From contig WAKA01000157.1 in NCBI GenBank assembly GCA_015523565.1, positions 1 through 21,852 on the forward strand: a stretch of DNA of 21,852 bases, read 5' to 3'. Each line of letters starts with the position of its first letter. Position 1 is the first letter of the stretch. A program made the position numbers and the translations under genes. Of the stretch, positions 378-3,720 are shown one piece after another. The notes beneath the pieces are model-generated. The model was not told the origin of the DNA. It worked only from the letters and a program-made list of their open reading frames with translations, and did no database searches. The DNA comes from Candidatus Heimdallarchaeota archaeon. GTDB lineage: Archaea > Asgardarchaeota > Heimdallarchaeia > Heimdallarchaeales > Kariarchaeaceae.

Positions 378-384
378 AAGTAAG

Positions 385-3300
385 ACAAAGTCTGCCGCAC
401 GGCAATTGGTGGATACCTTGGCTAGCTAACCGATGAAGGGCGTGGCAAGCTGCGATAAGCGCAGGGTAGGTGCAAGCAACCAACGATCCTGCGATTCCCG
501 AATGAGAATCTTTTGCACATCCAATAAGTGTGCAAAATCCCTCTGGGATGGGGAACCCACGGAACGAAAACATTCAAGTACGTGGTGGAAGAGAAAGCAA
601 TAGCGATTTCCTGAGTAATGGCGAATGAAAGGGAACTAGGTCAAACCGAATGACCATATGAAAATATGGTTAGATGTGGTGTTGTGGATCCTAGCTAATG
701 CGTAACGAATTGAAGCCGAAATGATTTGGAACAATCTGCAATATAGGGTGAAAGCCCCGTAGGCATAAATTCGTCGCTATAAGCTGGGAAATCCGGACTA
801 GGGCGGATTGGATGTTCCGTCCAAACTTCGAGAACTAACTCGAAAACCTAAATATTCAGCTAGACCGATAGCGAACTAGTAACGTGAGTCAAAGGTGAAA
901 AGCAGCGGTAACACGCGTTGAAAAGAGCTTGAAACCAATTGTCTAAACAGTGTAATAGTGTTGAAGGAATAACGCTCCGTGAATCCAAGCTGGGTGACCA
1001 GTGGTCGAGAACGGAGAGAGACCGGCACTATTGCGTCAGTCTTGAAACACTGGCCAGGGAGTTTATCCGAGTGGTGAGACTAAGGTTATATCGTAATCGT
1101 AGGGAAACCAACCAGTCCGCAGCATTTGCAAGGGACGACGTGTGAAAGCGCGTGAAATCACTCGGATAAGATGCGAAAGGCGTTGATCTATGCGTGGCCA
1201 AACTGAAGCCGTGGGAAACTGCGGTGGAGGGTTGAAGGGGTATTGATATACAACTCATTCCTCTGAGCTGCGTATAGTGGTTAAAGGCCAATCGAAGCGC
1301 CTGATAGCACATTCCGGTAGAAGTGGAGCCGCAGTCCAGCGTGGCACGAGTATGAACCGTTGGTAGAGTACAGACAGTGTCGGAATGGGGAGTGAAATCC
1401 TCGCCACACCATCTAACTCCGAATGACGGTTCTACGTAGACTGCCGCAGTTGGGTGTGTCGCCGTAAGGGTGGCAACCGAGAAGCGAATAAGCTAGACTT
1501 GGGTTAAGGGCCCTAAATGTTGATTAAGTGTAAAAAGCGAAGGACGTCGTATCGCTAAGACAATGAGGTGGTAGGCTTAGAAGCAGCAATCCACTAACAA
1601 AAGCGTAACAGCTTACTCATCGAGCGGTACGGCTCTGAAAATGGACGGGGCTAAAATCAACTCCCGATACCCAAGGGCACCATTATAACATGGTGATCCG
1701 GTATACCGGCGTTTGGCGAGGGTAGAAGCAGGTTGGAAATGACCTGTGGACCTCGTTGAAGTGCAGATCCTGGTAGTAGTAGGCAGATATATGGGTGAGA
1801 ACCCCATAGGTCGAAAAGGCTAGGGTTCCTGGACAATGTCCATCAGTCCAGGGTCAGTCGATCCTAAGAAAGACCTTAGTATGGCTCTTTCAAAAGGGAA
1901 ACAGGATTAATATTCCTGTACCGCGTGTGAATCCGGCAACGATATTGGTGGATCAGACGGTTGTGGATAGGTGGTCTTAGTTTCTATAGCTAAGTTAAGT
2001 GTATATGTCCGACGAGTAGTGTTGCACTGAGACTCGGATGAAATCACGAATAGGCGCACTAATTTACGTCGCTACCATCGATTTCCAAAACCCCATGAAA
2101 ATGATCCCCCATTGTAGCACGCGATCGTACCGAAAACCGACACGGGTGTCCTTAGGCTTAGAAGGCTAAGACCTCTTGGAGTAATCTAGGCAAGGGAATT
2201 CGGCAAAATAGATGGGTAACTAAGGGATAACCATTGCCTTTAGCTGTTTACGCGGCCGAAGGTGTCACTAACAAAGGGAACCCGACTGTTTAACAAAAAC
2301 ATAGCAAACTGCTAGGGCGAAAGCCTGTGTATAGTTTGTGTATCCTGCTCAGTGCCCGTAAGTCAAATCCCCGTACAAGGGGGCTAAGCTCGGGTTAACA
2401 GCGGGAGTAACCATGACTCTCTTAAGGTAGGCAAATGCCTTGTCGGATAATTACCGACGTCCATGAAGGGACCAACGAGGTTCCCACTGTCCCTGCCTAG
2501 AATCCAGTGAACCTGCGATCCGGCGAACAGACCGGATAGCCCAGTTGGGAAGAGAAGACCCTGAGAGCTTTACTACAGCTTCCAGCTGTTTATTTGGCGA
2601 TCATACAGAGCGTAGTCAGGAGCGTCGAACCAAGGTCTCCGGGCCTTGGGGATGCAACAATGGAACACTGACTATGGTCGTTGAATAAACTTACCCGTTG
2701 CGACGGGGACACCTGGTGGTGGGTAGTTTTGCTGGGGCGGCAAACCTCCGATAAGAAAACAGAGGTGCCCAAAGGTCAGCTCAGGAGGGACAGAAATCCT
2801 CCGTAGAGTGCAAGGGCATAAGCTGGCTTTACCGTGAACGTACCAATAGCGTTCGCTGTTACGAAAGTAGGGCCTAGCGATCCATCCGATTGTCCTTAGT
2901 AGACGCGGGTGGTGACAGAAAAGTTACCTCAGGGGTAACAGAGTTGTCGTGCGTTAGAGTTCCCAATCGCTTGGAATTCTAAACAATTTTCAAATTACCT
3001 CCACCACTGCACAGCTGCAGTAAGCGGTTTCACAAACTTAAAGGTCTTCTATCATCCTCACATTTTTAATAGACAAACGTCGATGATTTAAAAATTGGCT
3101 GAACTCAGAAGTCCTTTAACCCAAATGCCGATTTGCTGTGCAAAGATTAGCTACTTTACAAAAAGTTGCAACGGTAGGCGATGAACACATCGACCGCACG
3201 GCTTGCTTCCTCGATGTCGGCTCTTCCTCGTTTGGTGTTGCACAAGGCACCAGGAATAGGGTTGTTCGCCCGTTAAAAGGGAACGTGAGCTGGGTTCAGA

Positions 3301-3658
3301 CCGTTGTGAGACAGGTTGGTTTCTATCTAACTGGGCTGTTGGGTAAGTGCAAGCAAAGTGCCATCAGTACGAGAGGAACGTGGTGTTGTGGCCTCTGGTG
3401 TATCGGTTGTCGTTAGGCATTGCCGAGTAGCTACGCCATCCCAGATAAGAGCTGAATGCATCTAAGCTCGAAGCTGGTCTTAAAAAGACTTACCCACTCT
3501 GGAACTAAGGGAAATTATTTCTCATTGGGGGCTGGTGACAGCAACCAATAGTTCTGGACGAGTGCACGGGCAAAAGACCCGCTTGCAATGAATGCCGTGT
3601 AAGCGTCGAGCTCTGCGAGATGTTTAGCGGACATTTAATTAAGCACGAGGCGCTTTGT
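385..3658 (+). rRNA. rrl: 23S ribosomal RNA (archaeal), intron-containing; about 3050 nt after splicing
   Basis: Conserved LSU motifs: GGTGGATACCTTGGC near the 5' end, CCGATAGCGAACTAGTA, CTCTTAAGGTAG, P-loop CTGGGGCGG, PTC CCTCGATGTCGGCTC and GAGCTGGGTTCAGACC, sarcin-ricin loop AGTACGAGAGGAAC (3366-3379). Ends estimated from helix-1 pairing ACAAAG..GCC / GGC..CTTTGT. Confidence 0.97.
2965..3188 (+). other. Archaeal BHB intron in 23S rRNA helix 89 (E. coli 2477/2478), no ORF
   Basis: AT-rich 224-nt insertion. GTTC(2959-2962)/GAAC(3183-3186) 4-bp helix with bulges CCA(2963-2965) and ACA(3187-3189); intron stem ATCGCT/GGCGAT. Cutting after the 2nd nt of each bulge gives AGAGTTCCCATCGACC, the same length as E. 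coli AGAGTTCATATCGACG. Confidence 0.92.
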
Positions 3659-3664
3659 AAGAAA

Positions 3665-3717
3665 GGTTCAAAGATATACCTAGAACATTTGTCGTAGTGT
3701 TTAGAGGCTGTATATAC
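3665..3717 (+). other. 3' strand of the 23S pre-rRNA processing stem with BHB motif
   Basis: Continuous complement of four segments in 283-377; bulge GAA at 3683-3685. Confidence 0.9.
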
Positions 3718-3720
3718 AAC

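Follow-up and report, generated by a model that had tools for sequence, protein, structure and literature searches.

The DNA analysed here, referred to below as the window, is a stretch of 21,852 nt from a Heimdall-group Asgard archaeon which shares its GTDB order with Ca. Heimdallarchaeum aukensis and Ca. H. endolithica. It carries a 23S rRNA gene that is single-copy in the assembly (one match in the window's own genome) and is interrupted in the terminal loop of helix 89 (H89). In the local alignment with the Rfam model RF02540, 227 nt stand against 3 model positions in this loop, a net insert of 224 nt; without it the 23S rRNA is 3054 nt in length. Comparison with the 23S rRNA of a member of another family that has no H89 insert (genome G061) revealed no further insert larger than about 25 nt. 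The gene and the features of the insert, including the predicted bulge-helix-bulge (BHB) motif and a putative exon-complementary element (ECE), are as follows.

383-3660, forward strand: 23S (LSU) rRNA gene (Rfam RF02540, LSU_rRNA_archaea, 2404 bits, model positions 1-2987)
2946-2958, forward strand: exon-side 5' strand of H89, predicted outer helix h (Rfam consensus structure line and sequence)
2954-2963, forward strand: distal 5' strand of H89, putative exon target of the ECE (fold, pairing across genomes and covariation)
2959-2962, forward strand: exon strand of the predicted central helix of 4 bp, GUUC, E. coli 2472-2475; pairs with 3183-3186
2963-2965, forward strand: predicted 5' bulge of 3 nt, C2963 C2964 / A2965; predicted cut after 2964
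2965-3188, forward strand: predicted BHB intron of 224 nt in the H89 terminal loop, E. coli 23S 2477/2478 (cmscan insert and BHB geometry)
2966-2973, forward strand: 5' strand of the predicted intron helix h', 8 consecutive standard pairs with 3175-3182
2973-2982, forward strand: putative ECE, GGAAUUCUAA, intron nt 9-18; pairs with exon 2954-2963 (E. coli 2467-2476)
3175-3182, forward strand: 3' strand of the predicted intron helix h', partner of 2966-2973
3183-3186, forward strand: intron strand of the predicted central helix, GAAC (covariation across 18 genomes)
3187-3189, forward strand: predicted 3' bulge of 3 nt, A3187 C3188 / A3189; predicted cut after 3188
3190-3202, forward strand: 3' strand of H89, lying in exon 2 and pairing with 2946-2958 (sequence and Rfam alignment)

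The position of the insert was determined by alignment to the E. coli 23S rRNA. Aligning window positions 3189-3328 placed 3189 at nt 2478, and the spliced window sequence aligned to E. coli 2445-2512 without gaps (47 of 68 positions identical); therefore, 2964 corresponds to 2477 and 3211 to U2500. When the insert is removed at the bulge cut sites, the conserved sequence and spacing of a mature rRNA are obtained in both the Rfam and the E. coli alignments. The resulting H89 spacing, 51 nt, is the same as in the Asgard genomes that have no intron.

The splice motif and its occurrence in Heimdallarchaeia

The ends of the insert and the distal part of H89 can form a complete hBHBh' motif, comprising a central helix of 4 bp, two 3-nt bulges on opposite strands, an outer helix in the exons and a helix in the intron. 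In the outer helix, 2946-2953 pair with 3195-3202 and 2957-2958 with 3190-3191; the exon pairs beside the bulges, as read from the sequence, are G2957-C3191 and A2958-U3190. In tRNA introns, cleavage takes place after the second nucleotide of each bulge, and by this rule the intron comprises positions 2965 to 3188. In the unconstrained fold of H89 plus intron from the window the BHB is not formed, and forcing it costs 5.9 kcal/mol.

The central helix, one strand of which is exon and the other intron, was compared across 18 genomes that carry an insert at the same bond. The results showed that 71 of the 72 cells pair and that the helix is complete in 17 of the 18 genomes. When the 3' partner was slid by 1-8 nt as a control, 0-45 of the 72 cells paired and at most one complete helix was obtained. 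Compensatory changes in exon and intron, from U-A to C-G, were observed at 2473 and 2474.

A sequence-only reading of this DNA had described a BHB intron that is AT-rich, lacks an ORF and occupies 2477/2478 in the loop of H89. The coordinates it gave are matched exactly by the BHB cut rule, and its numbering (2964 as 2477, 3211 as U2500) agrees with the E. coli alignments above. The G+C content is 38.4% in the intron and 49.4% in the exons, as the AT-richness implied, and the longest stop-to-stop frame in the intron is 41 aa; motif, numbering and ORF scan together support the description.

Inserts at this bond were found in 19 genomes of the class Heimdallarchaeia; they range from 46 to 470 nt and occur in five families, the majority of those in the class. 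Among genomes in which the region is assembled, the insert is present in all members of families f1 (9/9), f3 (1/1), f4 (3/3) and f7 (5/5), in 1 of 3 of family f5 and in none of the 18 of family f2. Independent assemblies of three species of the window's genus carry it. A single genome of another Asgard class has a sporadic 52-nt insert at the same bond. Family f2 has its own intron, located at 2450/2451.

The inserts fall into two size classes: long introns of 186-470 nt, and hairpin-like mini-introns of 46-71 nt which retain only the BHB. Sequence blocks are common to the introns of related genera. Between families, neither nhmmer with an f1 profile nor short-word BLAST detected homology above shuffled controls, so that common descent across the class is argued from position and architecture only. 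RNAalifold on MAFFT alignments of whole introns yielded little beyond two local hairpins, because the intron interiors align poorly. The interior of the intron thus diverges fast, with compensatory changes keeping the splice motif.

Splicing enzymes and RNA-derived contigs

The genome to which the window belongs encodes two paralogues of the splicing endonuclease EndA, each with the N-terminal and the catalytic domain (PF02778 and PF01974), and therefore probably has a two-subunit form of the enzyme. One paralogue is 197 aa in length; its best solved relatives, labelled only 'tRNA-splicing endonuclease' in the PDB, are presumably subunits of crenarchaeal heterotetramers. The ligase RtcB is also encoded (564 bits).

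Evidence from RNA comes from metagenome contigs. Contig L067 matches the 23S rRNA gene of genome G010, from a sister genus in the same family, in three stretches of 2605, 309 and 179 nt, with identities of 99.77%, 100% and 100%, respectively. The 451-nt insert of G010 is missing from this contig exactly at the predicted junction (...UUCAC/AUUGACC), and the 3' end of the 23S runs on into the 5' end, the arrangement found in circular 23S rRNA. Since such a join is impossible in collinear genomic DNA, the contig is derived from RNA. A total of 17 contigs were found, of which at least 12 are circularly permuted in this way; in all 17, H89 is uninterrupted and carries f1-type exon variants, and none is closer to the window than 83%. 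Thus the junction that corresponds to the predicted 5' cut is found joined in RNA of relatives, and in a confamilial species the insert is removed precisely and the exons are ligated. The segment 2965-3188 is probably spliced likewise in the window's own species. Retention of the insert in mature rRNA, which the sequence-only reading had named as the result that would count against an intron, was not found for the confamilial species, whose insert the RNA-derived contigs lack.

As a whole, these data are best explained if the pre-23S rRNA contains an intron of the archaeal (BHB) type, and we regard 2965-3188 as very probably such an intron. We propose that the ends of the insert and distal H89 would fold into the hBHBh' motif, that EndA would cut after C2964 and after C3188, and that RtcB would join the exons, giving the normal H89 loop back; the intron would be released, presumably as a circle.

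An element in the intron that pairs with exon 1

In addition to the splice motif, the long introns contain a putative ECE. In the window the unconstrained minimum-free-energy fold includes this element, and since its exon partner is 2954-2963 it cannot coexist with the central helix. The element is present in all 12 long introns, just past the 5' strand of helix h'; it is 9-11 nt in length, and its partner always lies at the end of exon 1 (E. coli 2465-2477). It belongs to the minimum-free-energy fold of 8 of the 12 long precursors.

The register of the ECE was first found by optimising each sequence on its own, which is biased toward pairing, and only the test on an unfitted alignment is free of this bias. 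On the unfitted MAFFT alignment, 84% of the cells pair in register, compared with 30-57% when slid, and 12 cells show a change on both sides, compared with 0-2 in the slid controls. Four pairs have changed on both sides, and none of 500 shuffles reached the covariation score. Among the long introns of family f1, a change of exon U2474 to C is matched by a change of A to G in the ECE, and another genome shows the G-U intermediate.

It is possible, although in our view not probable, that the ECE has no function of its own and represents either a remnant of the insert's origin, in which upstream exon sequence was copied in inverted form, or a coincidental match in AT-rich sequence. In line with this, the duplex of individual sequences has only a modest advantage over shuffles (p between <0.002 and 0.28), the RNAduplex z-scores of whole introns for exon pairing are unremarkable, the mini-introns manage with the BHB and no ECE, and no significant ECE-like element turned up in a search of the 2450/2451 intron of family f2. 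Position, conservation and covariation have to be considered jointly for the signal to emerge. A leftover or a chance match would not readily account for the constant place and the same exon partner in every long intron, for the compensation at 2474 in related introns, for the two-sided changes and the covariation score, or for the recurrence of the element in minimum-free-energy folds. From this comparative evidence, the ECE appears to be a new feature, whose pairing shows covariation among the 12 long introns and is in competition with the splice motif.

If the ECE does act in the precursor, the incompatibility of its hairpin with the splice motif would give the precursor two alternative folds. 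During transcription of the intron the hairpin may sequester the free 5' strand of H89; it would have to open before cutting, so that splicing would be a late step in the maturation of the peptidyl-transferase region. Any role of the ECE in timing or as a chaperone is a matter of speculation. In its strongest form, which we consider doubtful, the proposal makes the H89 intron a built-in assembly device and no mere passenger: the ECE would clamp the distal 5' strand of H89 as soon as it is transcribed and hold the peptidyl-transferase region immature, in a defined fold, and as the clamp would have to be displaced before EndA can cut, tRNA-type splicing would serve as a late checkpoint in the maturation of the large subunit.

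Alternative readings, known introns and significance

The sequence-only reading had suggested that the insert might be a decayed homing intron. Such an insert would be a recently acquired, horizontally spread selfish element which has lost its LAGLIDADG gene, like many rRNA introns of Crenarchaeota. Endonucleases are frequent in crenarchaeal rRNA introns, and ORF-less 'remnants' are a recognised category (PMC4496867). The AT-richness relative to the exons would agree with this origin, the absence of detectable sequence common to the inserts of different families would fit separate arrivals, and the 52-nt insert in another Asgard class is sporadic. However, the suggestion found no support in the coding content: none of the 20 alleles, which reach up to 470 nt, carries an endonuclease ORF or Pfam domain, a search with the 10 longest open frames from the longer alleles gave no Pfam match even at E <= 1, and no LAGLIDADG domain was found in the window intron. 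Moreover, the presence of the insert tracks taxonomy, from every assembled member of f1, f3, f4 and f7 to none in f2, and related genera have intron sequence blocks in common. We consider a recent decayed element rather improbable. A homing-endonuclease relic within the insert was rejected, there being no ORF and no Pfam match. A group I or group II relic was likewise rejected, as three alleles gave no Rfam match; searches of the 470-nt and 451-nt alleles returned none at E <= 1.

The archaeal tRNA-Trp intron harbours a box C/D guide, and the main role of the H89 intron might similarly be to deliver a trans-acting small RNA. At 3080-3102 of the window, UCGAUGA, 12 nt and CUGA succeed one another with a spacing like that of a C box, a guide and a D' box, and the same arrangement occurs in genome G003. 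Against this, no Rfam family, C/D or other, was assigned in the window intron even at E <= 10, apart from a partial sR44 match (9.3 bits, E = 6.3); the CUGA is not conserved in other genera of family f1, no C'/D pair follows, the ECE has no D box after it, and GAUGAU forms one strand of a helix in the fold. A box C/D sRNA in the intron was rejected on the absence of Rfam support, the unconserved D'-like box and the helix strand, and the delivery of a guide or similar RNA as the main role is highly unlikely. A K-turn reading of the AUGA...UGAA blocks was dropped, as flanking stems and covariation were not established.

In bacterial rRNAs, inserts that are excised without ligation are known, and such a process would here leave a fragmented 23S rRNA. 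This is extremely unlikely, as the RNA-derived contigs of confamilial species are continuous across the junction, RtcB is encoded, and the BHB is a substrate of a cut-and-join pathway. Although large expansion segments occur in Asgard LSU rRNAs (PMC7594248), an insert retained in mature rRNA is practically untenable, since the H89 loop is a conserved loop and no known expansion site, the BHB covaries and the relatives' insert is missing from the RNA-derived contigs, which contradicts retention for the family; misassembly is equally so, given the independent assemblies of three species.

The BHB intron reading agrees in many respects with the 23S introns of Crenarchaeota reviewed in PMC3608112 (Desulfurococcus mobilis with I-DmoI, Staphylothermus marinus, Pyrobaculum and Aeropyrum). 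Both have a BHB junction, a substrate for cleavage by the tRNA splicing endonuclease and for joining by a ligase, and both lie in highly conserved functional regions of a single-copy 23S gene. The present introns differ in their site (the H89 loop at 2477/2478) and host (Asgard Heimdallarchaeia), in having no homing endonuclease in any allele, in being present by whole families where those are sporadic, and in the covarying element that pairs with the exon and competes with the splice motif. Long ORF-less introns and small hairpins of less than 50 nt that would be spliced by the same pathway are also found in the 16S rRNA of Thermoproteales (Jay and Inskeep 2015, PMC4496867), a different gene and lineage from the 23S of Asgard archaea. 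In that study, conservation of predicted structures within an insertion locus was not the general case, and persistence was held to require frequent horizontal transfer by homing endonuclease; the present introns keep one pairing across families, and none was seen to encode an endonuclease.

The enzymes and motif are shared with the BHB processing and circularisation of archaeal 23S rRNA (PMC12918454, PMC7758197), and the RNA-derived contigs with a spliced H89 likewise represent 23S molecules with circularly joined ends. Whereas that processing acts by trimming the rRNA at its ends, the H89 element lies internally, and a loop beside the peptidyl-transferase centre is restored when it is removed. 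The ECE resembles P1 of group I introns (the internal guide sequence) in that an intronic element pairs with about the last 10 nt of exon 1. It is a resemblance only: the H89 intron has no catalytic core (no Rfam match) and has splicing signals of the BHB type, and its splice site lies in the loop of the ECE hairpin, outside the helix. A preprint on BHB introns in Asgard tRNAs (bioRxiv 10.64898/2026.10.13.758758) reports two EndA paralogues in most Asgard genomes; phylum, motif and enzyme are shared, but the present inserts are in rRNA and far longer, and the preprint does not mention rRNA.

The sequence-only reading had also raised the possibility of a new site and host lineage, and no earlier report was found in the literature searched. 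No H89 intron is reported there (the CRW intron tables and Jackson et al. 2002 lay outside the search), nor are BHB introns in Asgard rRNA genes, and positions 2477 and 2478 are both absent from the text of PMC6125680. Within this literature, the insertion site 2477/2478 and an Asgard host for a BHB rRNA intron thus look unreported.

In practical terms, work with Asgard genomes is affected because inserts of 46-470 nt, together with others nearby, lengthen and break predictions of the 23S as well as its alignments and probe sites. BHB rRNA introns are classically crenarchaeal; the present data extend them to the Heimdallarchaeia, usually placed closest to eukaryotes, where, in entire families, the peptidyl-transferase domain is interrupted by them in its core. 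Here BHB rRNA introns appear to persist without a homing endonuclease, with the splice motif and the exon-pairing helix kept by compensatory changes, which conflicts with their description as selfish, endonuclease-driven elements whose structure is not conserved. A two-state precursor, with clamp hairpin and splice motif as its alternatives, could tie tRNA-type splicing to the timing of ribosome assembly, and if this is true, the clamp would parallel, as a cis-acting element, the snoRNA chaperones in eukaryotic ribosome biogenesis.

Position and architecture of the helix 89 insert

The source genome is a metagenome assembly of 3.57 Mb and 90% completeness, in which the window is an entire 21.9-kb contig. 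The Rfam archaeal LSU model locates the 23S rRNA gene at 383-3660, and in the local alignment to this model a domain V hairpin has 227 nt opposite 3 model positions of its terminal loop. Window 3189-3328 was aligned to an annotated E. coli 23S gene, which equates 3189 with nt 2478, and the window without 2965-3188 aligned to E. coli 2445-2512 free of gaps; this places the insert in the helix 89 (H89) loop, at the 2477/2478 bond. The features of the region are as follows.

Features of the 23S gene and of the H89 insert in the window
383-3660, plus strand, LSU (23S) rRNA gene
2946-2953 with 3195-3202, plus strand, proximal H89 helix, which continues below the exon pairs
2957-2958 with 3190-3191, plus strand, exon pairs of the motif, read from the sequence
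2959-2962 (GUUC) with 3183-3186 (GAAC), plus strand, central helix of 4 bp
2963-2965 (CCA) and 3187-3189 (ACA), plus strand, 3-nt bulges on opposite strands
2966-2973 with 3175-3182, plus strand, intron helix of 8 bp
2973-2982, plus strand, exon-pairing element GGAAUUCUAA (intron nt 9-18), pairing with exon 2954-2963 (E. coli 2467-2476)

The junctions show a canonical hBHBh' motif, namely bulge-helix-bulge (BHB) with an outer exon helix h and an intron helix h'. In tRNA introns, cleavage follows the second bulge nucleotide; this rule, applied to both bulges, gives an intron of 224 nt at 2965-3188. The sequence-only reading had proposed an AT-rich, ORF-less BHB intron at 2477/2478 in the H89 loop, and each part of this was confirmed: the site by the tool-checked E. 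coli alignment, the geometry by the hBHBh' motif, the lack of an ORF by a longest frame of 41 codons within 2965-3188, and the composition by a G+C content of 38% vs 49% in the exons. The intron matched no Rfam family even at E <= 10, and no second copy of it was found elsewhere in the genome. The 23S gene stands at the contig start, and the 382 nt ahead of it (1-382) contain no 16S gene; an opposite-strand ORF starts 61 nt downstream of it (3661-3720), and no 5S gene follows.

In 18 genomes with the insert, 71 of 72 central-helix cells are paired and 17 of the 18 helices are complete; with the intron strand slid along by 1-8 nt, 0-45 of 72 cells paired and at most one helix was complete. The exon strand occurs as GUUC, GUCC or GCUC, and the intron strand tracks it (GAAC, GGAU, GGAC, GAAU, GAGC, GAGU), thus U-A pairs are replaced by C-G at 2473 and 2474. 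The bulge length of 3 nt is maintained among the inserts compared and the intron helix follows in nearly all cases; the 5' bulge is relaxed in some of the short introns of family f7.

Evidence for spliced and circularised 23S rRNA in the family

A degenerate pattern that describes an H89 free of interruption, with exons of the type found in the window's family (f1), was run over metagenomes and gave 17 contigs. One of them, L067 (3090 nt), matches the 23S locus of G010, an f1 genome of genus g3, in three collinear pieces (99.77% over 2605 nt, 100% over 309 nt and 100% over 179 nt). At its first joint, ...GUUCAC to AUUGACC..., exactly the 451-nt insert of G010 is missing, at the bond predicted from the BHB. 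At its second joint, the 3' end of the 23S (...GUACCUAG) runs onto its 5' end (UACUGAUCC...), although in the genome these lie 3.6 kb apart and in reverse order. Since both joints occur in one molecule, L067 is not collinear DNA; it is what the assembly of a circularised, spliced 23S rRNA would yield. H89 is uninterrupted in 17 of 17 contigs and at least 12 of them show the 3'-end-to-5'-end adjacency, which suggests that 23S rRNA is circular in this Heimdall family. Such circles are already reported from archaea, Asgard among them (PMC12918454). The joints read in L062, L065 and L067 run through ...GUACCUAG|UAC..., and the window has a matching processing stem (363-377 with 3665-3678) and a UACCUAG motif in the 3' flank (3677-3683).

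The joints of L067 and the set of 17 contigs as a whole show that an insert at the same bond is spliced out and its exons ligated in another species of the family and, less strictly, in the family at large; none of the 17 is closer than 83% to the window. For the window's own gene, we infer with high confidence, from the shared position and architecture, the same removal and exon ligation by the splicing endonuclease EndA and the ligase RtcB. The genome encodes RtcB (564 bits) and two EndA paralogues, which measure 197 and 209 aa and both have N-terminal and catalytic domains. For the 197-aa paralogue, the only one searched, the nearest solved chains are 3p1z_B, 3ajv_B and 2zyz_B, named in the PDB merely as 'tRNA-splicing endonuclease', which we take to be catalytic subunits of crenarchaeal heterotetrameric enzymes. 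Two EndA paralogues are present in most Asgard genomes, according to a study that treated tRNA genes only (bioRxiv 10.64898/2026.10.13.758758).

Distribution and origin

We searched 83 species genomes of the class and 250 of the phylum, and inspected H89 in every locus retrieved. The window's family differs from Heimdallarchaeaceae (f2) of the same order, which includes the single-contig genomes of Ca. Heimdallarchaeum aukensis PM71 and Ca. H. endolithica PR6.

Inserts at 2477/2478 in families of the class
f1 (the window's family): 9/9 with the region assembled, 186-470 nt; one contig terminates within the insert
f3: 1/1, 221 nt
f4: 3/3, 329-339 nt
f7: 5/5, 68-71 nt
f5: 1/3, 46 nt
f2 (Heimdallarchaeaceae, with the two named Heimdallarchaeum genomes among them): 0/18, none

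Outside the class, where the H89 sequence was read in 12 genomes and 10 more were assessed by the adjacency of BLAST pieces, one genome only carries an insert at 2477|2478, a 52-nt BHB hairpin (L053, G105:C17), and its two classmates are without.

The presence of the insert follows families, and sequence blocks are common to related genera; no similarity is detectable between inserts of different families. One old gain with later losses (in f2 and part of f5) and repeated gains at 2477|2478 are both conceivable. A decayed homing intron had been one suggestion of the sequence-only reading, and nothing supports a homing endonuclease past. Misassembly is no reasonable reading, as three species of the window's genus carry the insert in independent assemblies.

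It is textbook knowledge that Desulfurococcales and Thermoproteales carry BHB introns in 23S genes (PMC3608112), and ORF-less and hairpin-sized classes have been catalogued in 16S genes of Thermoproteales (PMC4496867). The paper on circular Heimdallarchaeum genomes mentions rRNA introns solely with regard to a mobile element beside the 16S gene (PMC8813620), and a paper on Asgard expansion segments removed 'known intronic regions' without giving details (PMC7594248). Our literature search found no paper on an H89 intron or on BHB introns in Asgard rRNA genes, which supports the earlier suggestion of a possibly new site and host lineage.

Other inserts were observed in Asgard 23S genes. The bond between E. 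coli A2450 and A2451 (window 2937|2938 equivalent), within the peptidyl-transferase centre's central loop, is the site of a second BHB intron, 189-423 nt long; its central helix consists of GGGG with CCCU or CCCC, and in most cases its bulges read UAA and GAA or AAA. This intron occurs in 14 of 14 f2 genomes parsed (Ca. H. aukensis, L017; Ca. H. endolithica, L019; 12 others), all without the H89 intron; two f7 genomes (L038, L039) have both introns, and the window's gene lacks that at 2450|2451. Several genomes of genus g11 (e.g. G026:C14:1181-1330) carry an extra insert of ~148 nt at the equivalent of window ~3311 (about E. coli 2600). Relative to the window, the f7 locus L038 (G075) has an 848-nt insert (524-1373) at the 2420/2421 equivalent, which is long enough for an endonuclease gene. 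Another Asgard genome (L057, G093) has a 32-nt insert, possibly a mini-intron, just upstream of UCGAUGUCGG in the otherwise invariant GCUUGCUACC (about E. coli 2497). For roughly a dozen f14 genomes, alignment with the window does not start until query 420 (window ~3259, near E. coli 2548), which suggests another insert site there.

An exon-pairing element in the long introns

When the window's H89 and intron were folded without constraint, the BHB was absent and intron nt 9-18 paired with the exon instead; imposing the BHB cost 5.9 kcal/mol. We searched for the best duplex between the last 14 exon nt and the first 60 intron nt, with the register optimised per sequence. In 12 of 12 long introns (186-470 nt), it uses one exon stretch, from 2464/2467 to 2476/2477, and the element, or clamp, lies directly past the 5' strand of the intron helix. 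The exon varies among lineages (UUAGAGUUCC, GCUAGAGUCC, GCUAAAGUUCAC, GUAAGAGCUC) and the element is complementary to each, with two-sided changes at six positions in the per-sequence register. Because the register had been optimised in this way, the pairs were recounted on a plain MAFFT alignment unfitted to structure, where 84% of cells pair in register vs 30-57% when slid, and two-sided changes fall in 4 pairs and 12 cells vs 0-2 when slid. The covariation score was reached by 0 of 500 shuffles. Among related long f1 introns, where exon U2474 has become C the element has G in place of A, and the G-U intermediate occurs in another genome.

The element is within the minimum-free-energy fold of 8 of 12 long precursors, and the BHB-forced fold is 0.4-5.9 kcal/mol higher. 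Its helix and the BHB central helix both need exon 2472-2475, so the two folds are mutually exclusive. The introns of 46-71 nt are without the element, and their minimum-free-energy fold includes the BHB central helix.

We tentatively propose that the exon-pairing hairpin would form first, since its transcription comes immediately after that of exon 1, and that, while the intron is transcribed, it may hold the distal 5' strand of H89, which would have no other partner at that stage. The hairpin would have to open before the BHB could form, which would place splicing late. H89 extends from the peptidyl-transferase centre in the direction of the factor-binding site, and in large-subunit assembly it is one of the parts that settle last. 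We assign the H89 insert to the BHB intron class, new in its site, its host lineage and its covarying exon-pairing element; it is ordinary in kind, and what is unusual is the site, the persistence and the clamp, in a helix where an unremoved insert should be incompatible with function.
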